A DNA stretch of 64,000 nt from Leptogorgia sarmentosa (lineage: Eukaryota), in the NCBI GenBank assembly GCA_964658305.1, contig OZ210885.1, positions 1,550,001 through 1,614,000 on the forward strand, given 5' to 3'. Numbering within the stretch: position 1 is the first letter of the stretch; each line of letters opens with the position of its first letter. Under the pieces are notes generated by a model, which had not been told where the DNA came from, did no database searches, and worked only from the letters and a program-made list of their open reading frames with translations. Below, one piece after another: positions 34,520 through 61,000 of this stretch. A program made the translations under genes and the position numbers.

Positions 34520-35924
34520 TTATAATGGTGGTGGCTTTCTCAACACCAAACCGCCTTTAGCAGCATCCAGTTTCGCATCCAAACTTCGTTCAAAAGCATT
34601 GGCAGAAGGTGGCAGCATTCTGATTCCGCACGTGCATCCTCTGACGGTTCTTCCTGATCTGGAAACACTATGCACACACTGGTAGGCAGTACATTCCTCT
34701 CTTATAAAGAATAGCACCGCACATAGTTGTTGCATCATGTTAGCAACATGAGCAGCTTCATTGGCTGCATCATCTCCAGAAAATGTAAAGTTGTTCACAT
34801 CACAAATCCTTTTCTGAGCTTCAATAATTTCTTCAGTCATGTGAGCCTCGAACTCGAAGAGACGATCAACCAATTCCTCTCCTATGAAACAATCCCGTCA
34901 ATTTTTAAATTAGCTTTGTATTTCCATCTATCTTGTGTTTATAATAATTCTGTGCATGTATCGTAAAAAACAAGCTTAAGCAAAATCTGGCGCATATCCC
35001 CAAATTACAGTTTTCACTTGTAAAAAGTGAGCAATAAAGATATCTGAAACTAAATCTGAATTTGGAATTGAGCGACTTTAACATATATACTAGAGGGGCT
35101 TTGCCCCCTCCCCCCTCCACCGAATCAGCGATCTTTCGCGGTCTCTGCTGAATTCACACATTCACACAGTCTTACTATAAATTATACCTGAACTAAAATC
35201 AACTATATCTTATCTGAACTAACGAATGCATAGTAGGAACTGACCAAAGTACTTGCAAATACTTACCACAGTACGCTTTTCTCTCCTTATCAAAAGCCTT
35301 CTTTAGTGCAGTGTACCGTTTCACTTCATCATTCGTAGATCTCAAAATATTACGATCATGGTGATTGTGGATTTCAAAGAGTTCGAAGAAGTTTTCACTG
35401 TCGACTTTGAAATGGTGTTCTTTGATACAGGTGCCCTGCATGTCACGCAGCAACGCCTCCCTTGTTATGTCCATCGAGCTGAAGACAACTGAACTGATAC
35501 CAAGCTCTTCCTCTAACGTCGACGAAAAATCATCCTCTGTCCATGCAACCATCTCCATGTGAGTGACAAGAACCGCTACCAGGTCCAAAGGAAGCTTCAC
35601 GACGGTTTTGAGATATTTGCGAACGTTGCTTATGACAGAATCGATGCGACGTGCAGTTTTAACAACAATAAAGATTTTGCTGAAAGGCCTATAATTGATT
35701 GCGCTAGCGATCCAAATATTGTGCTCGAGCTTGTTTTCCAATGGATTGCTCCCAGGTGTGTCAGCAATGATTAAATTGCTTTCTGGAACACAGAAAATTT
35801 CTGATGATCTCGTGGAACCCGTGGATGAATCAGAAGCTCTGCCCCGTTCACCCGTCAACTTCTCCACTATGGTTGATTTCCCAGTGCCAACATCACCCAA
35901 GAGAATGACATACTTTTCGTCCAT
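34520..35924 (-). CDS. TRAFAC-class P-loop GTPase, AIG1/GIMAP-like (2 coding exons)
   Basis: Exons 35267-35924 and 34520-34881 (phase 1). G1 GDVGTGKST, G2 Thr (GSTR), G3 DTPG, G4-like VLVTHME, helical C-terminus. Splice acceptor 8 nt before the ATG and a possible UTR-exon donor at ~36840. Confidence 0.8.
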
Positions 35925-38176
35925 TGGTGTTGCTGAAAATATCGGATATTTAGGAATTATTTTTTTATGATGTACAACTGAACATACGACAATATTTGCC
36001 AAGACAGCCTGGTTTCATCTAGTGGGATCTTCAGATACAGTGGTATAGGTTTCTAAACGAATGTTGTGAGGCGCAAAAATTAATGCATTATAGCAAAATC
36101 ATAAACTTAAAATTCAAAGCAAATAAAGTCTCCAACAATTCATTTTTGAATTTAGAAATGTTTCTCAAGTAATCTTGTCTAGATCATTGAGAATTTTCTT
36201 CTTTAAAGTTTTGAAGTAAACAGATGTGCAGAAATACACAAACTAAAACACTTTAATTTTCAATCTTAAATTTTAAATCTAAATTTTAATCCAGGGTTAG
36301 CGTAACCTATAGCTTTGAACAATTGGGCTCCATGCACTCAGAGCGATGATATTTCCCGCGAGGGGCTTGATCAAGGCATATGGCAAAAAGCATTTTTGTT
36401 GCTTTTGTTGTGTTTCTCCCGTGTCTGACGACTGACGTCTAATTTGTTTAAGTTTATGAACTACATGACTCACTAAATTTAACGCTAGTAACGCTGTACA
36501 GTGTATACTTTCGATTCTATCATAATGAGCCCATTCTCGAAATTCCTTATAACAATATTTAATATTGCATGCTTCTTCGGCCTGATCTGTCATGTTCATC
36601 TTATTAATATGCGAATCAGGATAAACTGGCACAGAATCAGAGCGTGTTTTCATAAACTAAATTAAACTAAAGCTATAATAATTTGTGTAACTGCATGTTA
36701 ATGGTAAATCAGCCCTAGCATAAATACTTTTGCTTTCGATCCATAAAAGCTACAATGCTGAGATTGAAATTTATAAATGATCGAATAATTTATGTGTAGT
36801 TCATTCTAGCTTGAAACCAGATAATATATAGATAACTTACCTATATATAACAAATGATATACAACGTTTCAATCTGGCGCAACAAACTTGCAACGCAAGC
36901 GTTTCTCAAAATTTAATTGGCTTTACACGTACAATACCTGGAAATACGCTTAACCATACTGAGAACTCTTTTCAATCTTAAATGAATAATTTTACCATGC
37001 TGAGACGTTCAATTTTCAAATTGACTCATGGTGAGACTGGAATATATGACAATGTAGCTCTGATGTCAAAGTTCCGTCATGTTAAATGCAATTCAAACAA
37101 ATAGATAAGACACCACATTATTGACATAAGAGCAACGTATATTAATAGGCCTTACCAATTATCATCGGGAAATGACAAACTGAAAGATCGTGTAGAATGC
37201 AAGGCGAGTGCTCCACTGGTGGGTATAATATACATAATGTATTACATAATGGACAATTTCCGATCTATGGTTAATAAAAACAAATTCCCCGAAAGAACCT
37301 TTTACTCCGAAGTTTCAAAATTCGGAGGCGAAATGTAGTAAAATACGGCCTTGGGAGATTCGGAAAATTGTTACTATTTTGGGGGAAGAAATTCCGCACA
37401 TAACACAATGATGAGAAAATTCGATGAACAATGATGACGATCCACACAGTGATGAGAAAATTCGCAAACTTTATAAGCCTACATTTCCCACCGAATTTTG
37501 GAATCTTACTACTTTTCAAAAGGTTCACCTGAAAACCTTATTTTTATTGACTACATCGAAAATTAGGCTATTATGCAAACAATTAGGGTTGAGTGATGAT
37601 AGAATACAAAATAAAGTTGTAGGCTGATGTATGCAGTCACCTGTATCTCAAAGCAATGCTGGTCGCCTATGACTACAAGTTAAATGAAGTTAAATTTTTC
37701 GGCAAACTAGCACTGTTAAAATGTTAGTATACGTATTACCTATTATAAAATAACCGGAAGTAAGTGAAAAAGATTGCGCGGGCGTGATTGGCTAACAGCC
37801 GTGTTGATGTGAGATTATGTAAACACAGCTATTTCCCGCTGCTTCTCGCTATTCCGTTATTCCGCATTTGTCATCGTGTTATTCTATGAAAGTAATAGAA
37901 AACGTTTTCCTACGTTTACATTGAGTTATTGAAACATGGAAAATGTTTTCTATTCCTTAATTGTTAAACAACCAAGACGACATTGCATGTATAAAGTAGA
38001 ATCAAAGAATTTCAGACGTCCTGACAAAATGTTAAACATCCACCCCGCTACAATGTTCCGAAATACCTGTGGAAATACACATACAAGACATCATCGAAAT
38101 CAACTGGGGTATCCATGGTCATATGTCCATCCGTTGGCGAAACGAAGTATTGCCAGAATTTTAAATTCTAATTATA

Positions 38177-39175: not shown

Positions 39176-40800
39176 TGTTTTCTTTTTGCGGGGCGTGTCA
39201 AAAAGGTAATCAAACTTTGAACACTGGGTGTATAAACACAATTTTTGCATAGTCGTGAAGATGAGAGTCTTATACCTGTTGAATGATGTATTTTTTGGGT
39301 CATTTTGAGCAAAACAGAAGAAAATTAAAATGAGATTAATGAGAACGATAAAATTCACCTTAATTGTTTCTAATAAACAACGGTGTATAACAAAAGAAAG
39401 GCGCAATCAATCACGAATGTGTCGTGCTAACAAAGAGCTTAGCTCAATGAGTTCACTGATTTTACTAGGATTATTGATAATTTTCATATTCAAATCGTTA
39501 TTTTTCGTCGTCCGCTCCAAGTCCCAGAGGGAACAAGTTTTCAATAAGTTTATAGTCCCATTGCTCAACGATAAATTATGCGATTTCGATTGAACAGCTG
39601 AGACTTTTTAACTATGTAAAACTGATATACAAATATTTATAAATACCAGACTTACAAAGCACAATGTCATGTCAAAATTCGATTACATTTTTTAGACATC
39701 CTGTATAGGGCTGTTAATGATCATGGGACAGTTTAGACAATGATGTAAAGGTAACTTAATACATTCAAGAGCCCTTGATATACTTCTCACAAAGATGACA
39801 ATTTAGATTTCATGATTATTATATAAGATCGGTTACCATAAAACTGTCCCACTCATTAACGAATGATTTCAGGAACATAAATTTTTGGAAATTTCTCTAG
39901 GGCCAAATTTTAACTATGTTATTTTCCAGTGAATTTAGCATACTTGAGAAACAAGGGCGGAAAACCTAATGATGTTTATACCAATACGTTATTTCCGTTT
40001 TATCTTACTACATAAGAACGTTACGTACATTATTACAGATTTACGTACATTAATTCTGCGCACGCATGCGATCATTCAAGGGCATGCACATGCATGCCCT
40101 TGAATGATCGCGCATCTCACCATTCCACAATATTAGCCAAAATTTTGAAATAGGAAAATTAGGAAACAACATTCTAAATTTATAGTTAATATTGAAGATT
40201 TGTTGCAAAATATCCTTAAATCTGGAAACTAGAAGTTTCCGATTATTGTATAATTTTGTATTACGGGCGAAAAAGCGTTGCTATTACATATTTTCGAAAA
40301 GTGGTATGGCTTTTCCTTGCGTTATACAAAAGTATACAAATTTACAAAATTCAAAAAAAATTTTGAGTGTGCCGGGTTGTGAGGTGTTGCTATACTTGAA
40401 TTGTTGTGTTTCCCGAATGCTCCCTCGCTTTGATTCGCTGTTCATGAATCGCTTATCCTTCTTTGAATACATTTTATAGCTATGGAATTCAGCTAAGGAA
40501 ACTCCAGGACCAAAAACACAACATGTTGGTCTTTGGACAATTTTAAACAGTGACGTAAAGTGGGGGCCAATTCGAGTGGCTCTTCACCTTTCACAATCTT
40601 CAAATGTGCCGACGTGTTAGCTTCTTTGTTTAAGCTCGTTTATATTTACCGTTGAAACACTTTATAATTAACTCTTTTCCAAAGACCATTTGTACTGACT
40701 TCAACACGCAACACGCAATCTTCATATTATATAACGGGAGTGCAAGTCAAGAAAATTCATTTTTGTAATTTTTTGGTGTATGTTTTGTTATACGGCCAAC

Positions 40801-42474
40801 ATGAGTAATCAGACGTTGTTCATTTTTCTCTGTGCATCATCATTGATGATTTTGGTGCACGGCTGCACAAGCAATATCGATTGTATCTCAAGCGGTTATC
40901 TAGGTTGTTGCCTTTATAATAAATGCCAATACATATCATACGATGATAGTTGCTCAAATTATCATGGCGCCCATTGTTATGGTGATTCTGGCTGTACGAG
41001 CGGTTGTTGTCTTGATTCTTCATGCGAAGCAGAAACTGACTCTAGATGTATTATTGCTAAGAACAGATGTTATGGAGACTGGGAATGTGATAGTAATTGT
41101 TGTAAGAATAAGCAATGTCAAGTGAATGACACGCTATGTTCTACCAATAATAAAAGTAAGTTTTTTAAGCAGGTATTTGAGAAAATTATTGTGCGAAATC
41201 AAATAGTTCAATCTATTGCTGCTATTACTTCTCACATTCAATTCGTTCTCGCTTGTGTGATGATGTTTTTTCAAATCTGTGCAACATACTAGTTTAGTTG
41301 TGTTTTAAAAATCAGAAAAAGTAAATATTAAATAACATCAACAAATTAAAACTAGAAATATTGAATAAATGAGGTAAGCGAGCGCCTTTATCAGAAATGT
41401 TAACCATGTCTGAAATGACATGCTCGACCCCAGGCCTTCATTTCAAAATCGTACAACGTTTATTATTCTAAAAGTCTAGAAGTATACTAGCTACAATTTT
41501 TTTAGTATTTTAAATCAGGTTTTTATTATTTTTACACGAAAAAATAAAAAATGTGTACTTTGGTTAAGCATATTAAATTAGTATACAAGAGCAAGATATG
41601 GAGGGAAAAAATAGCTCAAAATAAATAAAATTGACGATCATTGCATTTTATTCTGTTTGACATTTGATATTTGTACTACTTGCTACATAATTGTACGCGA
41701 TTAGGCAAACACTGTTCAAATCAACAAAAACGACGCATTAAAACGAAAATGTGAACTTAGTAATAGTTTGACAAATAAAACAATCGAAATCTTTTTCAAA
41801 TTTCGTTTCTAACTCAGCTGAAACGTACAAGAGGCAAAAAAATTTGTCATGACATGACTGTTTATACAGTTTGTACAAAAAAACGCAACTGAGTATTGAA
41901 ATGATCTATTGTCATGATTTCAATGGCCGGCCTAACCGTTACTAATATAAGCTGAATGTGCGCTTTAAATTTTAATGTTTGAATAAGTCAATACTTAATA
42001 TATGCACCTGTCAATATTTTGCACTTTTTACACTCAGTTAGTTTAGTGCTAGTGCATGTATTGAAATCATGATAATAGATCATTTTCAATACTCAGTTGC
42101 GGTTTATTTTGGAACACCCTGCATGTAATAAGATATTTCTTAATAATTAATCCACATAATTATTTAGTTAATTATATTTATATTAAATTCTAGTTTCTCA
42201 CAAGAAGAATAACTGGTGTGCTTTTGATTCCGCCACGTGCATTGGTCTTGTGGTTGGTATACCAGGCTCCATAATTATATTGCTTTCCACGTTGCAAGCA
42301 TATCGCCGCCGCCAACGTCTTCGAGCTTTGTTAGCCTCAGGAAGAATTGGAATTGTGTTTCCGACCTTGGTCGTTGCTCCAGTGATTGTTGAGAATGACG
42401 AGCTTCAACACGAACATGAACGACATGTCAACAATCAACCACGCCACGATCCACCACCATCCTATCGAGAATAA
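40801..42474 (+). CDS. Cys-rich single-pass type I membrane protein with C-terminal PPxY motif (2 coding exons)
   Basis: Exons 40801-41155 and 42194-42474 (phase 1). Signal peptide. Three C-x5-C-x(3-7)-CC-x4-C modules. TM IGLVVGIPGSIIILLSTLQAY, then RRRQR. Ends DPPPSYRE. Confidence 0.8.
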
Positions 42475-43290: not shown

Positions 43291-43821
43291 GTGGCGCAAT
43301 TGACGCAACCAATGTGTTGATGTAGTGAGAGAATATCCGTTTAATCGGGAATATTAATTTCATACCTGCTTTCGACCAATGAAGTTAATTCGCACACCGC
43401 AACAGGGTGGATACAGGATTTTAAAAAGGGCGAGGGGTGAAATTATAGATTGTTTAAATCCTAGCTTCAATGCTTGGCAAACGAACCATCCTGATCATCA
43501 ATAAACTCAGCTGCAGTGCTCATTATAATTTTTAGACATTTTGCACACAAGAGACAACAACAATTATCATGAGATAGAAAAAGATTTTACTTTTGCTTAT
43601 CGTAATATAAATTACGTAGCAATATTCTTCTCAGTCAATTTTATTAACCAAGAAAGCTAATATCAGCGTACTAGCTAGTAGGTCAAGAATTTTCTGGTTG
43701 GTGATTTAAAGGCACTTCACATTTTCGCAAAAATCCCATCGAAACATCGCCTTGACCTTCGCCTTCTTCCTCGAATCCGCCATCTGGCATTACGTCATTG
43801 TAAGCAAAAGCTCGTCGCTGA

Positions 43822-43900: not shown

Positions 43901-46341
43901 AAGGTCATAGCATAGTATCTGGCTATCTGCGAATTCGCAGATACAAATTGAATTAAACGGGTGACGTTTCTTATTATCTGCATGACCACATATTTGATAG
44001 AATGCATATTGATGATAATCACTGACTGATTCATGCAATATTTTAAATATTCATGAGTATGTATATATAGCTAGTAGTGAGTAAACGCGCATACTTATTT
44101 TTTTGCTCTTTAATGTTAAGTAGAGACGCGGTACATAAGGCATCCATATATTATTAATTCTCAGTACACCACCTGCACTACACTGGACACAACAACCGTG
44201 AAGCTGACATTTTGGTGAGTTAATATAGTGCTATTTTCTTTTTATTTTACCTTGGTGTGTGGTTGCTTTACTAGATATAAAGTATTCGATCATGTTACTG
44301 CCAAACAGTTCTTGCTTGCGAGAATTTGAACACTTTAGTGATCGAAGCATGCAGCATGACAATTGAACTTGTCATGACTATCACGTTCATCTATCTTTCT
44401 ACAGTAAAACTGCTGCGCGTGCAGTGAATTCCAGTATCGCGATATCATAACACTTTTAATTTGTGTGTGTATTCTTAGAGCAATGGATTTCCTAATTTTC
44501 TCCGTGCATATATGGCTTTTTGAATTTGCTATAGCTAGATGATTTTTACCGATAAGTATTACAAAGCTAGGACTATATAATATATATATCTTGTATAATT
44601 TAAAGCCTGAGAAAGAAAAAAATTGAAGACTAAAGTCTATACGATCTTAAAAACGTTTTAAATTAAACAGGCTCGCTAACTAAAATAATAGCCTATATGT
44701 AGATTGAAATAAAAATATATTTTACATTTAGTGAAAAACTGTGAAACTTTACGGACGAAGTTTAGAAATATAATTGACGATTGAACATTATAATTTCAGT
44801 ATTTTTTTCTTGAAACGTTTTTGTCATTAATATTTTACATTAATTGTGTTTTTGTGCAGTATAATAATGGTTATAATTATAATTGTAATTATAATTGTAA
44901 TTATAATTAGAGAGAGACCTTTATACTGTAGCTTCATATTTACGACAAACCGCTGCATGGCCGCAAACGGCAAATTTCAAATTCAATCTCGGGTTAGTTG
45001 TTATAAAATGTTAGCTTTTGGGAATTAGGAAAAATTGTCCAATAAACTTACTTGGCGTTTGCCGTTAGCATGTAGCGATGAAAAGACCTCAATTCATGAA
45101 GTCACCACTGCAGAATAACTGAACTGCAGGATAAAAACCTAATGTTTTCTTGCTTGCAATGCAATAATTAAAATTATATGAATTTGCCTCGACATGTGTA
45201 GCCAAAAAAATCAGAAATTGTTGTTTCAAAATGATTGGTATTCCTGCTTCAAGTGAGGGGCGCACAATGTAAAAAAATGAAAACAAGACGCTTCATGCAT
45301 GGAACGTTTAGTCCTTTAGGCTAACAGCGTCCACTCCCAGCCGAAGGAATATTTATAATTTTATTGCGCGTGTGGATCAATGTCTGTAGTTAATAGTGTT
45401 AGTGATAAGGGCGTCAGGTTGTAATGATACTGACAAGTATTAACAACAAATCAAATCGAATATAATTGAAAATAAAAATGTCATTGAAGAAAACCAGTAT
45501 AGCATTTTGTACATACGATTCTCTAAGCCCACAAAACACACGTACGTCGTGGGAAAGATGAATGACATTGTAAACATACATAGACAAAGTAAATATAATT
45601 TGCGAACCGACGCAGATGTCAATATTTTCCCATTAGGCATGACAGAAAAAGGAAATCGTTATGACTACGCTGTCAAAATTTGGAAGCAAAAGCTGCATAT
45701 GTGTGCATGTTACAAGTGCAATTGTAAATATAAACGTGCGTATGCTTAGGCTTGGTTGACAATCGTTTCTTTAGATATTTCCCGCGGTTAATATATATCA
45801 ACATTAGGTCATACAATTCGCTTAGTTCCCATTCACAATATGGATAGAGGTATTGTGGAATGACGGCAAGCTGTATTTTACAATTAGTTGATTATATAAA
45901 ACTCGATCCATAATTTTCAGAAATTTATTGTACTTGCATACTTTCTTAAGTGTTTTAATTAATGTATGCAAAGAAATAGAGAATATTATACGGCAGTGCG
46001 AAGATATGAAATTTATCTTCGAGCGGTGAAAACAGTATTCACTGTGGCGGGAAATTATCATGTGACTGATATCTTCACCAGTGCACATTGTATATTTTTC
46101 TGTATCTCTATTATATTATAGCAATAGAGTTGATGTTTGCGTGCTGCGCTCGGGCTAGTCTGAGTCGGGCCAAAACCATATTTACGCCCAAGAACATCAA
46201 ATGTATTACTATTACACTGAACAGACATTCGGCCTTAGCAACAAAACATTTGGCGCGCTTGACAACGGGCACGTTCTAATGTTGAAACGTTGATATGCTT
46301 GTGACGTCATTAAACTCTCAGACTGAATGCGCGATAATTAA

Positions 46342-46574
46342 AGGTGCCCTCCACTCATAATGTAAACAAATGCTTTGTTGACATTTTGAACAGCTATTTT
46401 TGTAAAATATTATAATACTAACAGCATATCTAACGCTGTTTTGGTTTGCTATGGTCATAAATGAATATAAACCAGAGTTTTGATTCAGAAAATGTTCGGA
46501 ACATTACAAATTTTTTGCAATATTATATCTGCGGGTCCCGATTTGTTATGCGCAGAACGGAGTGGACATCACCT
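46342..46574. mobile_element. Kolobok-like MITE with TTAA TSD
   Basis: ttaa|aggtgccctccactc ... gagtggacatcacct|ttaa. The paralogous site at ~54461 (gataattaagtttgg) is empty. Confidence 0.8.
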
Positions 46575-47202
46575 TTAAGTTTGGGGCAGCGAACGTAGTC
46601 GACGAAAGAACTTCTCCTGGGAGATCAGTTTCTAAAATCTTGATATGTCTAATGAGTTTTATGTGCCAAGAAAAACCCATTATGGACTGCTCCAAACTAC
46701 ACTATACATTTTGTTGTAGTTATGACTTGCTTAAAAAGTTGTAGTTTAATTTTTTCGTACGCCTACGCATGTAAAAATTGAAGTGCATTTTAAAGCTAGT
46801 TTCAATACAATCATATGAATAAATGTAAATCATCTCTCATACTTTAAATGATGTAGTGTGTTTCTAAAGGCATTTTATTAATAAAATGAAGTACAGAGGG
46901 ATTAATTTATTTCCACTTTCATTTTAAAAACGGATAACTGAAATGCAGCCTAAAGATTAAATAACTATGATAAATGATTCTCAGGAAAATCTGTATTTCG
47001 CGAAAATTAATTAATGCCCTTTTTCTATTTTCGATCTTCAAAATCGCAAAAATAAAGTCTCGCGAAATATGGCTTCGAAAAAATCGCGAAATAAACTATA
47101 CGCGCGAAATCAACTACGAATATAATCCACACGGCAGGCACAATAACACTCCTCCTTTTTTTTCTTTTGAAGGACTAACTACTTGAAAATTGGAAGGCAA
47201 CG

Positions 47203-49664
47203 ATGCATATCATAAAGTTGCATTTGCTGAGTTTTTTCATTGCATTCACATTACAATCACTAATTGTGGCGGTAAATTTTTGTTTTAACGCAAGTCTCGA
47301 GGGTACGTATTCGTGACGTGAAAATAGACAAACGTTTGTCCACCGTCCTTGGTCGTGATTGTATTCAGATGCCTGCTTCTTTCAAACTTCATGATGTTGT
47401 CTAAATTTCATAGGTTACAGACTTAATGTGACAGTTCTGACGACAAAAGTGGTTCCTGATTGGCTTGCCTGTGTGATGGAATGTGTTACAGAGCCTTGCT
47501 GTCGATCAATCAATTATAAAAATACACTGAACTTGCCGAAGGATGAATCAAATTGTGAAATGTTGCATAATGTGGTCAATAATATGTCTCAGAAATATTT
47601 GGAAAGAAATTGTTCTTATAACCATGTTTTTCTGAATAATCCACAAAAGGTAAAAATAATTCTCAACTGCAAATTAACAAATTTTAAACCTCTTTCAAAT
47701 TAATCCTCGATACCGCTCAATGCAAAGTTTAGCTTGGGGTACATGCAGGTACAGCGCCCGCGGAGAGTGTTTGCAAGTGGTGGGGCTGTGCCCATGAGGG
47801 GAATTTGGAGTGCTTAGATCGTCGGAAATGTCTCTCATATATAGCCTACGTGGTCTCATATAGCCTACGACGTTTACTAATTGATAGATATTCCATCCAA
47901 AATACTTGTGTTTCGGAATTGGAATGTTTTGATAGCTGTACTATTGATAAGACGCCAGCACTAAATGGCCACAACAGCCCACACGCTTGTTAATTTTTTA
48001 ATTAAGTTTCCATGGCCTGCTGGCGTCATTTCCTAATACTAAAATTGTAGACATAATTATTAACGTGCATTATGCAAATTAAGTGACAAGACATGCGCAA
48101 TGAAAAATATAAAAATTTTTAAATTTTGCGTGAAGTTTTCGAGGATAAAGTAGATTTTTTTCATTCATGTAGGAATTTAATGGGAGCTGCTTTCCAAAAG
48201 GTAAATGTCTAAAATGTGACAACGTTTTGTTTGGTCATCTCACTTTTAGTTACAGATTTGATCATGAATAATTTTTAGAACTCTTTTTCCATTCTAGCGA
48301 AGGTTAGTATATTTCCCTAAATTTAGTTATGTGAAATTATCAAAATTAATATGAAATGATGATTGTAATTATATGTTATATGCGTTTATATATTATCTTC
48401 CCGTATGATTTTTTGTCTATTCAATACATATTGCCTTTAATACGTTAAAAGTCGGGATATCTAGCTACTGTATAGTGATTTCCAGATTTTTTTCGACGGT
48501 TGTAGAAATCCTCAAAAGCTAAAAAATTGCAAACATGGGCCTGGCAATAGACAATAGTTGAAAGAAATGGCTACATTTAAATATCAAGGCTAAGTCTGAG
48601 TCAGACCGATCAACACAGGTTGTTTTAGAGAGTTAATTTCTTTCATGCATGACATCATGCGAGGTGCTTTCTTCAAACGTCACACTAAACTTAGGTAGGG
48701 AAGCTAACCTGGGATTTTCAAAAGCAATATACTACTTCCCTGCCGGAAAAATGCAGAAAAGTTGCGATAATTATGTTATTTATGGGTATTCAGCGAAATT
48801 TGATATAAAATTTCAATTCTCGATTCAACAGTACGTAAAAGTTGTGCTGATTGGCTGAATAAAAGTGCAGCCACAAATACAACACTTCAGGATGGTGTCT
48901 ATTCTATAAACCCCGAGGGACAGAAGAACACAGGTTTCACTGTCTGGTGTGACATGCATACAGATGGAGGAGGTTGGACAGTGTTCCAGAAACGAAAAGA
49001 TGGATTGCAAAACTTTAATCGCAATTGGGCATCGTATGAAAACGGGTTTGGTGAAAGCGACAGTAATTATTGGCTTGGTCTACATAGAATTTACAGCATG
49101 ATAAAAGATCAAAGCCAAATTCTAAGAGTTGATCTTCAAGATTGGGAAAATAACAGCCGATACGCAGTGTATGGCGTCTTTTCAATTGGGAGTAAAGATG
49201 TCAAGTACAAAATAAAAATTGGAAATTATTCAGGTGGAAAATTTTTGATTATATTCAAAATAAATATCTTGCCCTTTACCACTTAACAACACTTACGACA
49301 AACGGGGGCAGGGTATTTGCTCATCTTTGGCTTTGCCATAGAGGGCAGAATTTTAAACTGGCAGATAATTATTGTCTTTTCATTTCTTGTAGGTGATGCA
49401 GGAGACTCTCTCAGCCATCAGGATAATAAAAAATTCAGCACTTACGATAACGATAACGATAACGACGGCAATGGCCGTAACTGTGCAGCTTTGTTTCAAG
49501 GTGGATGGTGGTTTCGTAATTGTCTGCAGTGTAACCTGAATGGCCGGTACATCCAAGGAGGAAATCATTCATTCGCACGAGGCACAGGAGTTCAATGGCA
49601 GAAATTTAAAGGGGACAAATATTCCTTGAAATACACCGAAATGAAAATACGACCAAAAAACTAG
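47203..49664 (+). CDS. Secreted PAN-A + fibrinogen C-terminal domain (FReD, ficolin/tachylectin-like) protein
   Basis: Exons 47203-47302, 47414-47649, 48173-48200, 48832-49233, 49393-49664 in phase 1,0,1,1. FReD motifs VWCDMHTDGGGWTVFQKRKDG, YWLGL, KFSTYDNDND..NCA..GGWWF..C..NLNG, TEMKIRP. Confidence 0.9.
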
Positions 49665-51095
49665 AACATTCCAGTTAATTAATATTTGCACCACAAATGG
49701 GGAAAATGTAGAGAGTTGTAGCTTTTCATTATTACAAGGCCATCGATGGACCTTTCCCCTTTTAGACGAACTTTACTGAGATTTGGATGAATTTATCATC
49801 ACGGCTGGAAAGGGGATCATTAATTCAGTTGAATCATGAAGTTTGTTTGCACCTAAATAACGCTAAAATGAGGAAATTAAAAAGATTTCGAATGACTCAG
49901 ATTTCGAATGCGCGATCATGATTTTTTCGTGCGTAATACAAAGTATATATATTATTGATAGAGTGTGAGGTCCGTTCTGGGGAATACTGCACGGTCGAGT
50001 TCTTTTTACCTCCAGTACGGACCGAACAAGCTCAGTCAATAAGCTATTTATTATATGGCAAAAGATAAACAAAACTCGTTTACAACAATTCAACACTATG
50101 AACAAAGCCGGTAAACGGCTAATTAATATAAGAACAGCTGAAGAAGTTCGCTAAAAATTGTTCTCTAAAATGTTTACTTATTGGCTACCAAAAAAAAGAA
50201 CAGAATGTTCAAACATGTTTTTAACTTATTTTGTCTTCGCTGCCGCTCGATTCAATAAACAACCGACGTCGCTAAACCAGAGCGTTCTCACGGTTAGTAA
50301 TGAAATTTTTTAATTCAAAAGTTCCTCTAAAACGGGAAAGGTTCATTCGGATGGACAGAAACTTCATTTCATTACATGATTGATATAGCAATAGCATTAG
50401 GAATAAGCATTATGAAGATCTTGAAATGCATGGAGAGCAGATCGTTTAGGCATTGATTGGCTTATAGTTTAATTTTAGCTTGATGTTATTGGTGGGGGCA
50501 TTTAATTTCATAAGATAGATTCACATAAAGTCACGATTAGGTACAAGTATAATTATTGTAGGCTGTTAACGACTCAAAACTGAAAGTCTAAAACTATACT
50601 TGCCTGGAAAATATCAAACTAACGTTTCATAGCGAGTATAATCATCCAGTTACTGGCTTGATTGAATTAGTTTGTAGACCAATTTTTATTAAATATTATT
50701 AATTAAAAAGTGTGTTCGTGTCTTCGTGATAAGCCGTTCATCTTTCAGCATTAGTTAAACGCAGTAATTTTCATAAAAACTAATCTAACATACTAAGAAG
50801 TAAGCTACCAATGTTTTTACGATTAATAAACTTGTTACTATTCATTATTCCCAGGGTTATTGCCATAATATACTGTCACAACTAGACTAAGTAATTTACT
50901 ATCGTATTACTCACTATCTGTCTGCATACTAATTACTCGCTATTCTTCTGCAAGATAATTACTTCCCGGCGCTCTTTATAACCCTATTGTGCACGCCCGC
51001 TTCATTAAAATACCCTCGCTATTTTTCTCCATAAATTAACGCTAACTCTTCTTTGCATATATTGACGCTAACTCCTCTTTGCATACTAATTACCC

Positions 51096-51796
51096 CACTG
51101 AGCTATACTTAATATATCTGGAGATCGGGCTCTCCACTTTGAAGTGTCGCCAAAAACATGGCGGATTTTACGTCACACGTCCCCTATTCTCATGATGGTA
51201 ATTACTGACCACAGTTGAAGTGTGTGCAGGCGCCGTTTCCAACCCTCCCTGGATTTTACTGTACGATTTTATATATAAATATATACTGCATTGCTGTTTT
51301 GATATTTTTTCAAAGAATTGAGATAAAGTATTAAAATTCTCTTATATCTCAAAAATATATTGTTGTATTTGTCGATGTACGCGCCTATAAATACCGAACG
51401 CGATTGATTAAAGAGGACTTGACAAAGGAGTTGTAGCATCCGTAATTTATCTGAAATTAAATGTAGTTCAGCAAATAAGTGACCGACCGTCGCCAACTAT
51501 GTGTGCAAAAACGCGGCATGTTGATAATCAACAAAATTCAACGAAATATTGTTTTGAATTTAAAACTTTGACGTGATATTAGCTGGTATTTTAGTATTTT
51601 ATTTTCAGACAGGGGGGTGAGAAAACTGCTCTCTTTCGGCAATGTTATTTGGTCAGTGGTTAGTCCCCTGAAATAGGGGACTTACTACGTCATAATGACG
51701 TAAATTTGGCTAAAATCCGCCATGTCTTTGGCGACACTATTTTGTACGGCGTGGTATTACGACCCGATCTCCAGATATATTAAGTATAGCTCAGTG
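51096..51796. mobile_element. Recent non-autonomous DNA transposon, 34-bp TIR, 8-bp TSD (P/hAT-like)
   Basis: aattaccc|cactgagctatacttaatatatctggagatcggg ... cccgatctccagatatattaagtatagctcagtg|aattaccc. Empty site at ~59181. Confidence 0.9.
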
Positions 51797-51829: not shown

Positions 51830-52480
51830 CAGCCTCGTACCCAGGCGCTTCTTAGCTTAGAGAGATTAGCAAGAATCCAGATAAATACATAGAGATCGGG
51901 CGCCAGCGCGCAAGGGTTCTTGGGCAGGCGCGACGGAGGAAGCGCCTGGCAGAATATGCAAAAAACATGGAGGACGACGTGTCCATATTCATAAATGCAA
52001 ATGAGGAAATTGCTGTTCTTGATGAAATTGAAAGGCCAGTCCATCGAGCGGTACATTATTCCGAACGGTGTAATTTCTTCTTCCGAACTCCACGATGCTA
52101 TTGAAGCGAAATTTTTAAACGAATTGAAACACTGTAGTGTGTATGCGAAGCGAGATTATTTTGTCAGAATCGTCATAAAATCATAAGATGACAGTATAAA
52201 ACTACCTTCGAAAGATAATTCCTGGAGCGATCTTTCTAAATCATCCATATTTAAGTCAACCGGTCCGAGATTTTTCCAAAATTATCACATTCCGAAGCTT
52301 TTCAAACGCACATCATTTTTACAAAAGTGATAGACGGAAATTTGCATATTCTGCCAGCAGCTTCGCAACTCCGTCGCGCCTGCCCAGCAACCCTTGCGCG
52401 CTTGCGCCCGATCTCTATATAATATTAATCTGGATTCTTGCTAATCTTTCTAAGCTAATAAGCGCCTGGGTACGAGGCTG
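51830..52480. mobile_element. MITE with 9-bp TSD (Mutator-like); second copy at ~59217-59862
   Basis: ctattactc|cagcctcgtacccaggcgctt ... aagcgcctgggtacgaggctg|ctattactc, long imperfect TIRs. Confidence 0.85.
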
Positions 52481-55081
52481 CTATTACTCCCTATCTTTCT
52501 ACATACTAATTACTTCCGCCGCAAACGTTTCCCATAATAATTACTCCCGCCGCCATACGTGCGCGGTAATACTACTGTTCCATATAAGGCATTTTCATTC
52601 TCAGTACACCATGCACCTGCACTACACTGGAGACAACAACCGTGCAGCTGACATTTTGGTGAGTTAATAGTGCTATTAATTTTTCTTTTTATTTCACCTT
52701 GGTGTGTGGTTGCTTTACTAGATATAAAGTATTCGATCATGTTACTGCCAAACAGTTCTTGCTAGCGCGAATTTGAACACTTTAGCGATCGAAGCATGCA
52801 GCATGACAATTGAACTTGCCATAGCTATCACGTTCATCTATCTTTCTACAGTAAAACTGCTGCGCGTGCAGTGAATTCCAGTATCGCGATATCATAACGC
52901 TTTTAATTTGTGTGTGTATGTGTGTGCGCGTGCAGTGTGTGTGCTGCTATAATTATATGATTTTTACTGATAAGTATTAGCACAAAGCTTCGAATTTTTT
53001 CTTTCTCAGGCTTTAAATTATACAAGATCATATTATATAGTCAACGCGATCTTTAAAACGTCTTTAGCCTATAGATTGAATTAAAAATATTTTTTACATT
53101 TAATGAAAAAACTGTGAAACTTTTAAGGATGAAGTTTTAGAAATATAATTGACGATTGAACATAATTATTATAATTTCAGTATTTTTTCTTGAAACGTTT
53201 TTCTCATTAATTTTTGACAATTTTGCCGGGAGCATGTAGCGACGAAAACTTTAAGGCCTCTATTCTGGAAGTTACCGCTGCAGAATTTCTGATCTGCAGG
53301 GAAAAAACCTAATTAGTGTTTTCTTGCTTGCAATACAATAATTAAAATAGGAAAGATATATGAATTTGCCTCGACATGTGTAGCCAAAAAAATCAACAGA
53401 AATTGTTGTTAGTCGTGCTTCAAGTGAGGGGCGCACAATGTAAAAAAATAGAAAACAACACGCTTCACGGAACGTTTAGTCCTTTAGGCCGTTAAACCAG
53501 GCGAAAAATATTTATAATTTTACTAGGCGTGTGGTATCAATGTCTGTGCAGTTAACAGTGTTAGTGATAAGGGCGTCAGGTTGTAATGATACTGACAAGT
53601 AATTAACGACAAATCCAAACGACTATAATTGAAAATAAAAATGTCATTGAAGAAAACCAGTACAGTATATTGTAGCTACATACGATTCTCTACGCCCACA
53701 AAACACACGTACGTCATGGGAAAGATGAATGACATTGTAAACAAAGACAAAGTAAATATAATTTGCGAACCGACGCAGATGTCAATATTTTGCCATTAGG
53801 CTTGACAGAAAAACGAAATCGTTATGACTACACTGTCAAAATTTGGAAGCAAAAGCTGCATATGTGTGCATGTTACAAGTGCAATTGTAAATATAAACGT
53901 GCGTATGCTTAGGCTTTGTTGACAATCGTTTCTTTGGATATTTCCCGCGGTTAATATATATAGGTCATAAATTTCGCTTAGTTCATGATAATGATAGAGG
54001 TATTGTGGAATGACGGCAAACTGTATTTTATAATTAATTGATTATATTAACTCGATCCATAATTTTCAGAAATTTATTGTACCTACGTTTAAGTATTTAA
54101 TTTATGCAAAGAAATATAGAATAGCTATTATACGGCGGTGCGAAGATACGAAATTTATCTTCGAGTAGTGAAAACAGTATTCACTGTGGCGGGAAATTAT
54201 CACGTGATTGATGTCTTCACCAGTGCAGATATGAAAAATATCTCATTGTATATTTTTCTGTACCTGTATTAATTATATTATAACAATAACAAAGTCGGGC
54301 CAAAACCATATTTCCGCCCAAGAACATCAAATGTATTACTATTACACTGAACAGACATTCGACCTTAGCAACAAAACACTTGGCACTTGACAACGCGCAC
54401 GTTCTAATGTTGAAACGTTGATATGCTTGTGACGTCATTAAACACTCAGACTGAATGCGCGATAATTAAGTTTGGAATAGCGAACGTAGTCGACGGAAGT
54501 CTAAATGAGTAATGTCGAAATTTCTAATGAATTTTATGTGACAAGAAAAACCCATTTATGCATGGACTGCTCCAAACTACACTATAAGCAAAAGTAAATC
54601 TTTTTCTATCTCTTGATACAATGTTAATAATTATTATTGTGTGTAAAATGTCTAAAAATTATAATAGAGCACTGCAGCTGAGTTCATTGATGATCTGGAT
54701 GGTTCGTTTGCCAAATATTTATTATTTTAAAATTGAAATAGTCTGTAATTGCACCCCCCTTTTCCGCCTTTTTTCATTATTTCCTACAACTTTTCGCAAC
54801 TAAACTCAGAATAAATAACTTTAACTCAGGGCAACAATTTGGTATTGCGCGTGCTCCCTAAGCAAAATTCATGCAGTGGAATTAAACAGCTAAGAGATCT
54901 TTATGCCTAAATATCTTGATTTGTTTCATCATATTACTATATATCTACATACGGACTCAACAAATATCTAAATTAATAACCTGAACCCATGAATTCAGGA
55001 ATGTTTTGTTTTCTTCAAAACTGAATGTGAAAAATTAACATTTTAGATACCAAATCGCGGGAAAGAAGACGCAGGTGCAAA

Positions 55082-58031
55082 ATGGCAAATTTTGGGAGAG
55101 TTCTTTCCGTCCTCATGTACCTGCTGTTGGTACACAGATGTTATTCCATGAGATCAAGTACTTGGTTCAAGCTCGTCATTTCAGGTTATTCAATTTCCCT
55201 TAGCATTGTCTGCAGTTAGATTTATCCGAAATAAATGCAAAAGGACTTGGTATTACTGAACGGAAATTTCTCCCAACACCGGTCAATAAAGCAGGGTTGA
55301 AAACAACAAAACTCGATCCCTGCAAACAAAATGTGTGCGAACTTCAAATTTTTAACTTTTGTGTTCTATGAACGATAAGAATGGATGGGAAGTGTGAATT
55401 CTTAGAATTTTTCTGTCAATAAAGGATGTTGAAAATTACGAATCTTCAGTTCTTGAGAAGCAAAAATTCGGTTTGGAAACGTTATATATTACGAATTGCT
55501 GTCAGCAACCAAGTGGTTTAAGAGGGGAGAAGTTGCACGAAAATTTTGATCGGAATTAAACATAAAACTGCACCATTAACATCGATATTTTTCTTCCAAT
55601 TCTGACAGGTCATCGCCTCACTGATAATGTAATCCGTGAACTCAGTACACTGAGTCTTTTGGAGTGTACTTTACACTGTATGAGAAAACCTTCTGAATGC
55701 AAATCAGTCAACTACAGAGTTAAACAACGTCAAGATTATTCCATAAATTGTCAACTCATTAATGCCACAAAAACAACACATCCTCAGAATTTGTTGGAAG
55801 ACAGAAACTACGACAACCATGAACGCATAATAACAACGGTAAATCTTCGTAGATTTTGCACTAACATTATATGAGATACAGTGGCGTCGGATACAGTGGA
55901 AACCAGATTTTTCCGAAACAAATATTTTACATTTACCAGTGCCTGACAATGAAGCGGGGGTGTTACGGTATTTTGCACGATTAAGGGCATGGTCACGAGT
56001 GTTTTAGAAATGTGTCCATGGCCTGCTTGCGTTATTTCCCGCATTTTAACGACCTAAACCCGATATCGAAACTGTAGACATATTAACTTGCATTAGACAA
56101 ATTAAGTGGCAAGATATGTGCAACTAATTATTGAAAAATAATAAATTTGCGTGAAGTTTTGGAGGATAAATTAGTCTTTTCGTTCATGTAGGAAAATAAT
56201 GGAAGCTCTTTGCCAAAGTTCCTAAACAGCAAAATAGAAGGTGAATGTCTAAAATGTGATAACGTTTTGATTGGTCTTCTCACTTTTAGTTAGTAGCTAC
56301 TTAAAGATTTGATCATGAATGATTTTAGAACTCTTTTTCAATTCTAGTGAGGGTTTGTTTCCCTGCATAACCTAAGTTTAGTTATGTGAAATTATAAAAA
56401 ATAGTCTCATTTGAAATCATCATTGCTATTAGTGCATGCCAGAAATCTCTATAAAACAATATAATTATTTTGTGATATCCTATACCTTAACCACACCGTT
56501 TTGTACAAAATCTTTGCTATTTGGGCCGTATATCTTCCCGCAGGGCCGTACACAGAGGGGGGACAGGGGGGGCAGGTGCCCCCCCCCAGGGAAAATTCAA
56601 CGGTTCGTTTTTATTATTGATATCCACTGAAATTCTCTCACATTCCTCCCAAAGAAAGACCACTGCCCCCCCAGTTAAAAATTCCTGTGTACGGCCCTGT
56701 CTTCCCGCATGATTTTTTTCTTTATTCAATACATCTGGCTTTTTGCAAAATCTTCCACACATCCAGCTGGGGCCGGTTGTTAAAAGTCGGGGCTATGACT
56801 ACTGCATAGTGATTTTATTCGACCGTTGTAGAAATCCTCAAAAGCTATAAAATTTCAGATATGGGCCTGGCAATAGACAATAGTTGAAAGAAGTGGCTAC
56901 ATTTAAATATATCAAGGCTAAGTCTGAATCAACAGGCTGTTTTAAAAATTTGGATAACATTTTCCAAACTTCGAACAACCGATCGACCAACCCCTGGTTA
57001 ATTTCTTTTATGACATCATGCGAGGTGCTTTCTTCAAACGTCACACTAAACTTAGGTTGGGAAGCTAACCTTGGATATTCAAAAGCAATATACTACTTCC
57101 CTCTCGGAAAAATGCAGAAAAGTTGAGATAATTATGTTATTTATGTTATTTATGTGTATTCAGCGAAATTTGATATAAAATTTCCATTCTCCATTCAACA
57201 GTACGTAAAAGTTGTGCTGATTGGCTGAATAAAAGTGCAGCCACAAATACAACACTTCAGGATGGTGTCTATTCTATAAACCCCGAGGGACAGAACAACA
57301 CAAATTTCACTGTCTGGTGTGACATGCATACAGATGGAGGAGGTTGGACAGTGTTCCAGAAACGAAAAGACGGATTGCAAAACTTTAATCGCAATTGGTC
57401 ATCGTATGAAAACGGGTTTGGTGAAAGCGACAGTGATTATTGGCTTGGTCTACATAGAATTTACACCATGATGAAAGATCACAGCCAAATTCTAAGAGTT
57501 GATCTTCAAGATTGGGAAAATAACAGCCGATACGCTGTGTATGGCGACTTTTCAATTGGGAGTGAAGATGTTGAGTACCAAATAAAAATTGGAAGATATT
57601 CAGGTGGAAAATTTTTGATTATATTCAAAATCAATATCTTTCCCTTTGCCACTTAACAACACTTACGACAAACGGGGGCAGGGAATTTGCTCCTCTTTGC
57701 CTTTGCCATAGAGGGCAGAATTTTAAACTGGCAAATAATTATTGTCTTTTCATTTCCCGTAGGTGATGCAGGAGACTCTCTCGACTATCACAGTGGTTGG
57801 AAATTCAGCACTTACGATAACGATAACGACAACGATGACGGCCGTAACTGTGCATCTGTGTTTCAAGGTGGATGGTGGTTTCGTAGGTGTCTGGAAAGTA
57901 ACCTGAATGGTCAGTACATCCAAGGAGGACGTCATTCAGGCAAAGCAGGCACAGGAGTTCAATGGCAGAAATTTACAGGCGATCAATATTCCTTGAAATA
58001 CACCGAAATGAAAATACGACCAAAAAACTAG
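55082..58031 (+). CDS. Secreted PAN-B + FReD protein
   Basis: Exons 55082-55184, 55609-55838, 56192-56240, 57202-57603, 57763-58031 in phase 1,0,1,1. Leader MANFGRVLSVLMYLLLVHRCYS. PAN GHRLTDNVI..CTLHCMRKPSECKSVNY..CQLI. Complete FReD. Confidence 0.9.
56541..56699. mobile_element. hAT-like MITE with 8-bp TSD
   Basis: tcttcccg|cagggccgtacacag ... ctgtgtacggccctg|tcttcccg. Single tcttcccg at the paralogous site ~48396. Confidence 0.9.
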
Positions 58032-61000
58032 AACATTCCAGTTAATGAATATTTGTACCACAAATGGGGAAAATGTAGAGAGTTGTAGCTTTTCATTTTA
58101 TTACAAGCCCATCAATGGAACTTTCCCCTTTTAGACGAACTTTAGAATTGGGTGAATTCATCATCACGGCTGGAAGGAGGATATCATTGGATATCATTAA
58201 TTCAGTAGAATCGCGAGGTTTGTTTTGCAAAATTACGTTAAATGTGAAAATTACACAGTTATTCAAATTTGCGAATTTTCCATTGTATACTTTTGTATTT
58301 CGCACGGCGATTAAGAGATAATCAGATTTCGAATGTGACTATCACAGTTTGGCGTACATAAATCAACAGTATAGAAAATTTCCAAACTTTAAATGCCTGT
58401 ATTTCAAAACGATTACGAATTTTGTAACCAAAAAATGTCCAGTAATGAATTTTTTCAATTCAAAAGTTCGTCTAAAACGGGAAATGTCCATTCGGATGGT
58501 CGGAAACTTCATTTCATTACATGATTGATATAGCAGTAGCATTAGGAATAAGCATTACGAAGATCTTGAAATGGGTGTCCAGATCGTTTAGGCTATTGGC
58601 TATAGTTAAATTTAGGCTTGATGTTATTCGTTGGGGACATTTCATAAGATAGATTCACATAAAGTCACAATTAGGTACAAGTATAATTATTGTAGGCTAT
58701 TAACGACGACTCGACTTGTCCGGAAAATATCAAACTAACGTTCCATAGCGAGTATAATCATCCAGTTACTGGCTTGATTGAAATAGTTTGTAGACCAATC
58801 TTTATTAAATATTATTAATTAAAAAGTGTGTTCGTGACAGGCCGTTCATCTTTCAGCATTAGTTAAACGCAGTAATTTTCATAAAAACTAATCTAACATA
58901 CTAAGAAGTAAGCTACCAATGTTTTTACGATTAATAAACTTGTTACAAGGACATAAAGTCTCATTCATTATTCCCCGGGTTATTGCCACCATAATATACT
59001 ATCACAACTTTAATTTACTATCGTATTACTCAGTATCTGTCTGCATACTAATTCCTCGCTATCCTTCTACAAGCTAATTACTTCCCGGCGCTCTTTATAA
59101 CCCCATTGTGCACGCCCGCTTCATTAAAATACCCTCGCTATCTTTCTCCATAAATTAACGCTAACTCCTCTTTGCATACTAATTACCCACTATCTGTCTG
59201 CATCTATTACTTGATCCAGACTCGTACCCAGGCGCTTCTTAGCTTTGAGCGCGATTAGCAAGAATCCAGATAAATATATAGAGATCGGACGCGAGCGCGT
59301 AAAGGTTCTTGGGCAAGCGCGACGGAAGAAGCACCTGGCAGAATATGCAAAAAACATGGCGGACGACTTGTCCATATTCATAATGCAAATAAGGGAATTG
59401 CTGTTCTTGATGAAATTGACAGGCCAGTCCATCGAGCGGTACCGATTATTCCGAACGGTGTAATTTCTTCTTCCGAACTCGACGATGCTATTGCAGCGAA
59501 ATTTTTAAACGAATTGAAACACTGTAGTGTGTATGCGAAGCGTTATTTGTCAGAATCGTCATAAAATCAAGATGACAGTATAAAACTACCTTCAAAAGAT
59601 AATTCCTGGAGCAATCTTTCTAAATCATCCATATTTAAGTCAACTGGTGCGAGATTTTTCCTAAATTATCACATTTTGAAGCTTCGCAAACGCACATCAT
59701 TTTTTACAAAAGTGATAGACAGAAATTTGCATATTCTGCTAGGCGCTTCGCAACTCCGTCGCGCCTGCCCAAGAACCCTTGCGCGCTCGCGCCCGATCTC
59801 TATATATTTATCCGGATTCTTGCTAATCTCACTAAACTAAGAAGCGCCTGGGTACGAGGCTGCTATACTCCCTATCTTTCTACATGCTAATTACTTTCGC
59901 CGCTAACGTTTCGCATACTAATTACTTCCGCCACCATACGTGCGCGGTAATACTACTGGTTCATATAAGGCATTTTCATTCTCAATACACCGCCTGCACT
60001 ACACTGGAGACAACAACCGTGCAGCTGACATTTTGGTGAGTTAATAGTGCTATTTTCTTTTTATTTCACCTTGGTGTGTGGTTGCTTTACTAGATATAAA
60101 ATATTATGTTACTGCCAAACAGTTCTTGCTTGCGCGAATTTGAACACTTTAGCGATCGAAGCTTGCAGCATGACAATTGAACTTGCCGTGGCTATCAGGT
60201 TAATCTATCTTTCTACAGTAAAACTGCATGCGCGTGCAGTGAATTCCAGTATCGCGATATCATAACACTCTTAATTTGTGTGTGTACGTGTGTGCGCGTG
60301 CAGTGTTGCTATAATTATATGATCTTTACTGATAAGTATATTAGCTACAAAGCTTCGTGACTATATAATATTACCTTGTATAATTTAAAGTCTGAGAAAG
60401 AAAACAATTGAAGACTGAAGTCTACGCGATCTTTAAAACGTCTTTAGCCTATAGATTGAATTAAAAATATTTTTTACATTTAATGAAAAAACTGTGAAAC
60501 TTTTGAGGACGAAGTTTTAGAAATATAATTGACGATTGAATTTATTATAATTTCTGTATTTTTTCTTGAAACGTTTTTCTCTTCAATTTTTGACATCATG
60601 TTTTTGTGCGCAACAAATGAAGCCTTGCTGTATAATGATTATATATTAGAGACCTTTAGCTTCACGTTTACGACAAACCGCTGGCCGCGAACGGCAAATT
60701 TCCAACTCAACCTCGGGTTAGTTGTTAAAAAATGGTAGCTTTTGGGAATTAGGACAAATTGTGCAATAAACTTTTTTGGCGTTTGCCGGGAGCATGTATG
60801 GCGACGAAAACATTAAGGCCTCTATTCATGAAGTTACCACTGCAGAATTTCTGAACTGCAGGAAAAAAACCTAATGTTGTCTTGGTTGCAATACAATAAT
60901 TAAAATAGCAAAGTTATATGAAACCAGGCGAAAAAATATTTATAATTTTATTAGGCGTGTGGTATCAATGTCTGTGCAGTTAACAGTGTTAGTGATAAGG

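Follow-up and report, generated by a model that had tools for sequence, protein, structure and literature searches.

A single plan recurs in five genes of the window analysed here, a 64,000-nucleotide stretch of Leptogorgia sarmentosa contig OZ210885.1 that has 36% GC and carries spliced animal genes. Exon models based on splice signals give each of the five a signal-peptide exon ending in phase 1, a PAN domain exon running from phase 1 to phase 0, a linker exon running from phase 0 to phase 1, and a C-terminal domain. Three of them lie in tandem units that start at positions 44154, 52594 and 59975 in a self-comparison, the last unit running to the end of the window. Unit 1 joins one type of PAN domain, PAN-A, to a fibrinogen-related domain (FReD), unit 2 joins a second type, PAN-B, to a FReD, and unit 3 again has PAN-B and exits the window in its linker exon. 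The remaining two, T1 and T2, are sister genes that combine PAN-A with TLDc. Our subject is the cassette that bears the signal-peptide and PAN exons, which has no DNA homology between units 1 and 2 and which was probably replaced in the ancestor of units 2 and 3.

Gene models and domains

All exons of the five genes lie on the forward strand. Unit 1 opens with a putative non-coding first exon (44161–44214, start approximate), whose counterparts end at 52658 and 60035; a strong GT donor is present in all three units, and the copies are 92–93% identical. The signal-peptide exon of unit 1 (47173–47302, ATG at 47203) is of the A type, with an N-terminal cysteine, and ends in phase 1 at a splice junction that is seen joined in the relative P0006. 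It is followed by the PAN-A exon (47414–47649), a linker exon (48173–48200) that retains a cysteine and, against 49 nt in the linkers of three sister genes, is 21 nt shorter, and two FReD exons (48832–49233 and 49393–49664), the first of which matches PF00147 with an E value of 1.7e-37. In unit 2, the signal-peptide exon (55047–55184, ATG at 55082) is of the B type, without a cysteine before PAN, and ends in phase 1 at a weak GT donor, with the same junction pattern as P0039 and P0069. The PAN-B exon (55609–55838) leads to an A-type linker exon with serine in place of cysteine (56192–56240) and to FReD exons at 57202–57603 and 57763–58031. Unit 3 shows the coding part of its signal exon at 62812–62914, PAN-B at 63361–63590 and the linker from 63965, the remainder lying beyond the window. 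The spliced models have intact frames of 345 amino acids in unit 1 and 350 in unit 2.

Pfam profiles place PAN_1 (PF00024) in both differing exons, at 22.1 and 31.4 bits against a curated cut-off of 21.4 bits, and also identify Fibrinogen_C and TLD among these genes. These results agree with the sequence-only reading of this DNA, which had seen PAN in both cassettes and had taken the first exon, linker and FReD exons to be common to both units. Between units 1 and 2 the first FReD exon is 91% identical at the amino-acid level and the second, which houses the predicted ligand-binding part, is much more diverged, at 78%. P0022, a relative, matches MFAP4, FIBCD1, ficolins and tachylectin-5A in the PDB with E values from 1e-56 to 6e-49. 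The predicted products would be secreted and lectin-like, a function suggested only by the FReD family.

At 47272 the unit 1 signal exon is without 12 residues that are found in P0004, similar stretches of which occur in T1 and T2. A contig match from X7 ends at the same position with 67 letters left over, and the 12-residue deletion may be polymorphic.

Units 1 and 2 differ by a sharply bounded cassette

The sequence-only reading placed the loss of alignment between units 1 and 2 after 46706/54586 and its return at 48009/56015, and self-comparison and local alignment both recover these boundaries. The distal flanks of the two units are approximately 94% identical. Between the boundaries, cassette A (46707–48008), 1302 bp of likely resident DNA that is missing from unit 2, and cassette B (54587–56014), 1.43 kb long, reach a local DNA alignment score of 23, and 200 shuffles gave a mean of 24.1 with a standard deviation of 2.1. 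By the same test the flanks scored 1254 and 1241 against approximately 24 for shuffled sequence. The PAN exons alone and the signal exons alone also scored at shuffle level between the two units, and identity along the whole-unit alignment, 0.72–0.97 outside, falls to 0.38–0.58 across the cassette and recovers afterwards. Local DNA alignment detected no remnant of cassette A in unit 2 or of cassette B in unit 1. Residual nucleotide homology running through the cassettes, which had been named as a sign of gradual divergence, was therefore not found.

Unit 3 carries cassette B (62320–63786) with both junctions as in unit 2. Units 2 and 3 are 92% identical overall and 95% identical over the cassette. 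Cassette A, likely the resident or ancestral form, is 81% identical to the PAN-A gene at 611–1000.

The two cassettes had been described as unrelated, which is correct for their DNA and incorrect for their proteins: PAN-A and PAN-B share 28% identity over 72 amino acids (E 2e-5). Synonymous sites between them are saturated and the introns inside the two cassettes have nothing in common. PAN-A and PAN-B are old, distantly paralogous subfamilies with equal exon phases, so that the swap would be a like-for-like exchange of equivalent exons. Both breaks fall in introns. On the left, the break is in the intron that follows the putative non-coding exon, and a splice acceptor stands shortly upstream of the ATG in both cassettes, each of which supplies its own ATG, so there is no frame constraint at that break. 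The right break lies in the intron between PAN and the linker, which is in phase 0 in both units.

PAN and FReD of unit 2 group with different relatives

To place cassette B among related sequences we used one metagenome scan, in which 1 locus stood out among 82 pattern matches, and protein searches. The metagenome PAN-B locus, L001, is 79.6% identical at the DNA level to 55493–55829, upstream intron included, and the internal intron of cassette B aligns with it at 71% over 115 bases. The moved piece therefore kept its introns, indicating transfer at the DNA level and not retroposition. Downstream of PAN-B, L001 has a FReD without introns, which shares only 48–49% identity with the FReDs of units 1 and 2. 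L001 (1–1030) has a stop codon in its linker and may be a partly spliced transcript or a retrocopy.

Phylogenies of the two domains disagree. In the PAN tree, units 2 and 3 fall with L001 and P0001–P0003 in a PAN-B clade (support 100/99), and the PAN-A domain of unit 1 falls with T1 and P0004 (95/98). In the FReD tree, units 1 and 2 are sisters (97/97), joined by P0022 (100/100) and apart from L001. The PAN and FReD histories of unit 2 conflict, and the parts of this predicted gene are of discordant ancestry. L001 and P0001–P0003 represent the donor family, with a synonymous distance (dS) of 0.41 between the PAN domains of unit 2 and L001.

Among named sequences, the PAN exons in the window have their nearest relatives in two octocorals, Dendronephthya gigantea and Paramuricea clavata, in keeping with a probable octocoral origin of the DNA. 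In these species PAN-B-like domains occur with olfactomedin, FReD or a glycine-rich tail (P0039, P0040, P0069), and PAN-A-like domains occur with EGF and TLDc or with FReD (P0015, P0019, P0020). Up to 13 contigs in X2 have other letters at one place in the PAN-B exon, indicating that the same organism has further PAN-B paralogs. T1 and T2 were considered as direct donors of cassette A and rejected, with dS values of 0.26 and 0.35.

The linker exon suggests the direction of the exchange

A short cysteine-bearing linker motif follows PAN in all seven A-layout records with a visible linker (T1, T2, unit 1, P0015, P0019, P0020, P0022) and in none of the four outside PAN-B-like records (L001, P0039, P0040, P0069). 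Left out of this count were P0074, whose model has an intron-like insert after PAN, and read-through records without a spliced linker; for the N-terminal cysteine, P0020 and L001 are without that end of the protein and the 5' model of P0040 is doubtful. Units 2 and 3 have an A-type linker exon with serine instead of cysteine. By these counts, units 2 and 3 have a B-type front on an A-type linker, and unit 1 is consistent throughout. Together with the cut repeats in cassette B, described below, and the occurrence of PAN-B elsewhere with a distant FReD, this makes it likely that a B-type cassette entered an A-type gene. N-terminal and C-terminal cysteines pair in apple domains, and the linker cysteine may pair with the cysteine of the A-type signal exon in the same way.

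Junction sequences and a proposed microhomology-mediated joining

Both ends of cassette B fall inside repeats. At the left junction, in intron 1, three letters (46704–46706) are common to the unit 1 flank, the start of cassette B and a repeat copy at 43603. Cassette B begins here with a fragment of a dispersed repeat resembling a miniature inverted-repeat transposable element (MITE) (54581–54763, reverse strand), which has an inverted copy, 82% identical, at 43434–43603 that stops matching at the junction. Up to 11 contigs carry other letters here, and behind 54763 there is a loose end that looks like the end of an element. This loose end yields a terminal motif of the family that also matches 43403–43418, and cassette B represents only that one end. 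The inverted copy belongs to a MITE-like element on the forward strand (43403–43786), whose first half corresponds, in inverted orientation, to the start of cassette B and whose left end fits the family motif; its right end is uncertain, and inverted-repeat and motif scans did not recover it. At the right junction, in intron 3, four letters (48009–48012) overlap with the end of a forward-strand dispersed repeat in cassette B (55879–56018). This repeat occurs in up to 24 contigs of X2, with loose ends behind 56018 in X2 and X5. Its other copies run past 56018 with different letters that are similar in X2 and X5 (two contigs each), and the copy in units 2 and 3 is therefore cut at the junction.

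Unit 1 has no repeat in common with the ends of cassette B, and only the three- and four-letter overlaps are found in place of long homology. Non-allelic homologous recombination or gene conversion through long homology thus appears not to account for the junctions, unless an unseen donor already bore these flanks. Signs of transposon capture are likewise absent at cassette B: it has neither a target-site duplication nor intact element ends at its outer edges, and the junction flanks differ. A true MITE insertion does occur nearby (56541–56699), with 15-bp inverted ends and an 8-bp target duplication, by which rule we take it to be hAT-like. Microhomology-mediated repair or template switching, we infer, fits the junctions best.

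The sequence-only reading had suggested that a transposable element possibly assisted the replacement and had pointed to a dispersed repeat by the left junction. That repeat exists (46771–46903, with a copy at 18068–18201, 83% identical over 136 bp), and it starts 58–64 bp inside cassette A, away from the junction, so that its position is probably incidental and we rejected it as a junction marker. The repeats at the breakpoints sit instead at the ends of cassette B and look cut, which does not bear out a mechanism driven by transposons or by repeat homology.

Contigs of separate samples bridge three of four junctions

Contig matches were drawn from separately coded samples, seven of them distinct, one of which could be the source of the window itself. 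We used contig counts, not summed contig depth, as a guide to copy number. The unit 1 left junction is bridged by X4 record 11 (46575–46834) and X8 record 26 (46591–46828), the unit 1 right junction by X1 record 4 (47956–48269), and the unit 2 right junction by X6 record 24 (55983–56083). Contigs from four of the seven samples (S1, S2, S4, S6) thus read through three of the four junctions in units 1 and 2, and the want of read support that had been proposed as a ground for doubt was not observed. An independent record, P0035, runs across the right junction as it stands in unit 3, and the left junction of unit 2 recurs in its 92%-identical copy, unit 3. Pieces of cassette A occur in X1, X4 and X7, and pieces of cassette B in X1, X2, X4, X5, X6 and X7. 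X13 (organism C) holds two short pieces only and gives no outgroup state.

One contig behaves differently. X6 record 19 (54469–54586) has a left flank of the unit 2/3 type, its match ends exactly at the junction, and 105 unlike letters follow. Its gap pattern resembles that of unit 3, with 5 gap letters where unit 1 would need 21. This record is a possible unswapped or third-cassette haplotype. It is the main basis for a broader reading in which octocorals would have a combinatorial secreted family (PAN-A or PAN-B by FReD, TLDc, olfactomedin and others), with recurrent intron-to-intron swaps of signal and PAN exons and a locus that is still polymorphic, a reading we regard as speculative and rather unlikely.

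Elsewhere in this region, a perfect 313-bp tandem duplication (61736–62350) spans the left junction of unit 3, and is either a very recent event or an assembly error.

Age of the exchange and constraint on the product

Distance in the distal flanks is approximately 0.06 between units 1 and 2, and approximately 0.045–0.049 between units 2 and 3 across flank and cassette alike. As cassette B is present in both units 2 and 3 at approximately 5% divergence, the swap is older than the duplication that produced them. The event had been called recent on the ground that the flanking introns still align; they do, and this only bounds its age, since it predates the split of units 2 and 3 and the flanks next to the junctions are 14% diverged. 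The swap may be older still than flank identity suggests, its date perhaps masked by conversion of the distal flanks.

The FReD exons of units 1 and 2 have no frameshifting indels in 671 aligned bases, where approximately 10 would be expected from the non-coding rate of 14.8 per kb, and the two cassette B exons have none in 333 bases, where 3 would be expected (p 0.05). This pattern suggests constraint on the predicted chimeric gene. In the linker, unit 1 has lost 21 nt, and at the codon for the cysteine there is a shift of one base that is compensated nearby. Ratios of nonsynonymous to synonymous distance in the FReD are near 1 (0.045/0.040 in the first exon, 0.145/0.174 in the second), which fits relaxed or diversifying selection.

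A model for the exchange and its alternatives

We consider it probable that the A-type signal and PAN exons of the ancestor of units 2 and 3 were replaced, between two introns, by a B-type cassette from a distant paralog. Units 1–3 are tandem copies of a gene made of a signal exon, a PAN exon, a linker exon and a fibrinogen domain. Before units 2 and 3 split, a B-type piece of 1.43 kb would have been copied from the paralog in place of the A-type exons, and the joins would have been made by microhomology-mediated repair or template switching, not by long-homology gene conversion or transposition. We propose that the product survived because intron 1 lies on the non-coding side and the PAN exon ends in phase 0 in either type. 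With the A-type signal exon, the swap would have removed the likely disulfide partner of the linker cysteine, which would then have been lost, perhaps for that reason. The outcome would be a predicted secreted protein in which the fibrinogen-type binding domain is unchanged but is preceded by a new PAN domain, under the old promoter. Replacement by intronic recombination, as first proposed from the sequence, is in our analysis the best account.

Several observations weigh against this account. The donor locus was not found in the metagenome scan or the protein searches, neither of which gave a sequence that is near the expected 90–95% identity and includes the ends of the cassette; L001, at only 80% identity, shows neither of them. 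The left junction of unit 2 is unbridged among the contig matches listed, and the truncation of the repeat at that end rests on one copy in the window with an uncertain far end. Chance would give an overlap of at least three letters with probability 0.062 and of at least four with probability 0.021, rough values, the overlaps having been measured against paralogous repeat copies and not the true donor. Units 1 and 2 show another sharp non-homologous patch in non-coding DNA (49894–50295 versus 58269–58440), so that exon shuffling is not needed for a difference of this shape to form in this region; 58339–58454 is skipped by contigs of X1, X4 and X8. The records counted for the linker belong to two related classes, so the counts are non-independent. 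P0022, the closest outgroup for this FReD type (65–67%), has a PAN domain that scores alike against A and B (122 versus 131) and lies on the B side of the unrooted tree (98/94, long branch), so that P0022 supports the polarity by its cysteine layout alone. Finally, the structure model of P0015 has a mean predicted local distance difference test score (pLDDT) of 47.6, with both cysteines of the proposed disulfide in segments under 50, and a fold search with this low-confidence model gave no match at E values up to 0.001.

The alternative that survives best, itself unlikely, retains the swap and is compatible with the account above. An older illegitimate exchange, its junctions made at another locus or paralog, would have been followed by conversion or unequal crossover that homogenised the distal flanks, making the swap older than the flanks suggest. 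The excess of mismatches next to the junctions of units 1 and 2 points this way (37/272, against 110/1820 further out, p 3e-5), as does a dS of only 0.04 in the first FReD exon. The same stretches are, however, somewhat faster between units 2 and 3 as well (20/292 against 110/2381, p 0.11), and local rate or alignment noise would explain part of the excess.

Reciprocal loss would produce an identical alignment shape: an ancestor with the two cassettes side by side, perhaps used as alternative 5' exons, could have left duplicates that each deleted one. Each cassette does have its own acceptor before the ATG, and deletions at microhomologies are common. This history predicts one scar per unit, whereas cassette B has cut repeats at both ends, and neither cassette has left a remnant in the other unit; we judge it decidedly unlikely.

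With the polarity reversed, the locus would originally have encoded PAN-B and FReD, and unit 1 would have received cassette A from the PAN-A family, for instance from a T1-like gene. PAN-A paralogs are near at hand (T1 within the window, dS 0.26; P0004, 88% identical with the same introns), two of the three units are of the B type, and the PAN domain of P0022 leans to B in the tree. But the shared linker exon is of the A type with its cysteine kept in unit 1 only, the cut repeats sit in cassette B, and T1 is too diverged to have been a donor after units 1 and 2 split (dS 0.26 against flank values of 0.06–0.11), which makes this direction very unlikely.

An assembly chimera, to which the repeat-rich region and the perfect duplication over the unit 3 left junction might lend some weight, is hardly credible given that the junctions recur in the diverged units 2 and 3 (92%), in contigs of four samples and in P0035, and neither is gradual divergence of the two exons under selection, given saturated synonymous sites and introns that share nothing inside the cassettes.

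Other features of the window

Sister gene T1 (509–3925, forward strand) has an intact frame of 326 amino acids comprising signal, PAN-A, a linker with cysteine and TLDc. T2 (7681–9957, forward strand) has a signal exon, PAN-A, a linker with cysteine (8379–8427, from an exon scan) and TLDc-like exons in a putative five-exon model. TLDc proteins are usually intracellular. In T1 and T2 TLDc is joined to a predicted signal peptide and PAN, and the same secreted-looking layout is found in the Dendronephthya proteins P0015 and P0019.

Unit-specific insertions with inverted ends lie at 46342–46574, 51097–51796 and 56541–56699, and an element with inverted ends of approximately 135 bp lies just upstream of units 2 and 3 (51830–52480 and 59217–59862), duplicated with the unit. 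Outside the PAN genes, a long single frame on the reverse strand (35199–36014) matches a P-loop GTPase (PF01926, E 6e-9), its match to AIG1-like proteins being weak, and a sulfotransferase-like gene in several exons occupies 14621–17435 on the forward strand (PF13469, E 0.001 for the first frame). At 40735–42474, also forward, a cysteine-rich frame with no Pfam match precedes a frame with a hydrophobic stretch and a proline-rich tail, possibly a small membrane protein. A minisatellite with a 14-bp unit in 47 copies is found at 19243–19897.

Comparison with known systems

As an example of exon shuffling this locus is exceptionally well resolved: it allows the resident copy to be set against recombinant copies and the donor family, its junctions are legible to single bases, and it displays what is likely a subsequent change, the loss of the linker cysteine left without a partner. 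The mechanism of domain replacement is thereby made testable here, and the locus points to a modular secreted PAN family in octocorals. No paper on such a family was found by title or abstract start, in a search whose coverage leaves out most subscription journals. For the red coral skeleton, the portion of one report that we consulted mentions fibrinogen domains and gives no whole-word match for PAN or apple (PMC7853314).

The predicted proteins share a C-terminal PF00147 domain with FIBCD1, ficolins, tachylectin-5A and invertebrate FReD lectins. They differ from those fibrinogen-related proteins in that the N-terminal partner is PAN and not collagen, a coiled coil or Ig, and any ligand binding or immune role is putative. 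They also resemble octocoral proteins of Dendronephthya gigantea and Paramuricea clavata in which PAN-A- or PAN-B-like domains are combined with varied C-terminal domains. Unlike units 2 and 3, none of those octocoral NCBI records, which are automatic gene models, has a B-type signal and PAN on an A-type linker.

Exon shuffling by insertion into introns is, in one survey, a minor route that accounts for under 10% of high-confidence domain gains, and most such events are too old to show their breakpoints (PMC2926785). Our case resembles those described there in its breakpoints within introns, the movement of a multi-exon piece with its introns, the frame kept by phase, and the involvement of gene duplication. 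It differs from the gains described there in that one cassette has taken the place of an equivalent, paralogous one, with both junctions legible to the base. Young chimeric duplicates in Drosophila have repetitive elements at their flanks, and ectopic recombination through shared repeats has been proposed for them (PMC2211543). Ours is likewise a young chimeric duplicate with repeats at its edges, but donor and recipient have no repeat in common at the junctions; repeats occur in the incoming piece only, where they are truncated, a pattern in keeping with joining by microhomology. In Drosophila affinis, hotspots of exon shuffling are transposon-rich regions that receive gene fragments from elsewhere (10.1101/2025.10.28.685065). 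The present region is also transposon-rich and takes in gene fragments; unlike those hotspots, it shows exchange within one modular family that restores the same architecture. Set beside these systems, the case is a clean new instance of a known process, exon shuffling by intronic recombination, and not a new kind of system.

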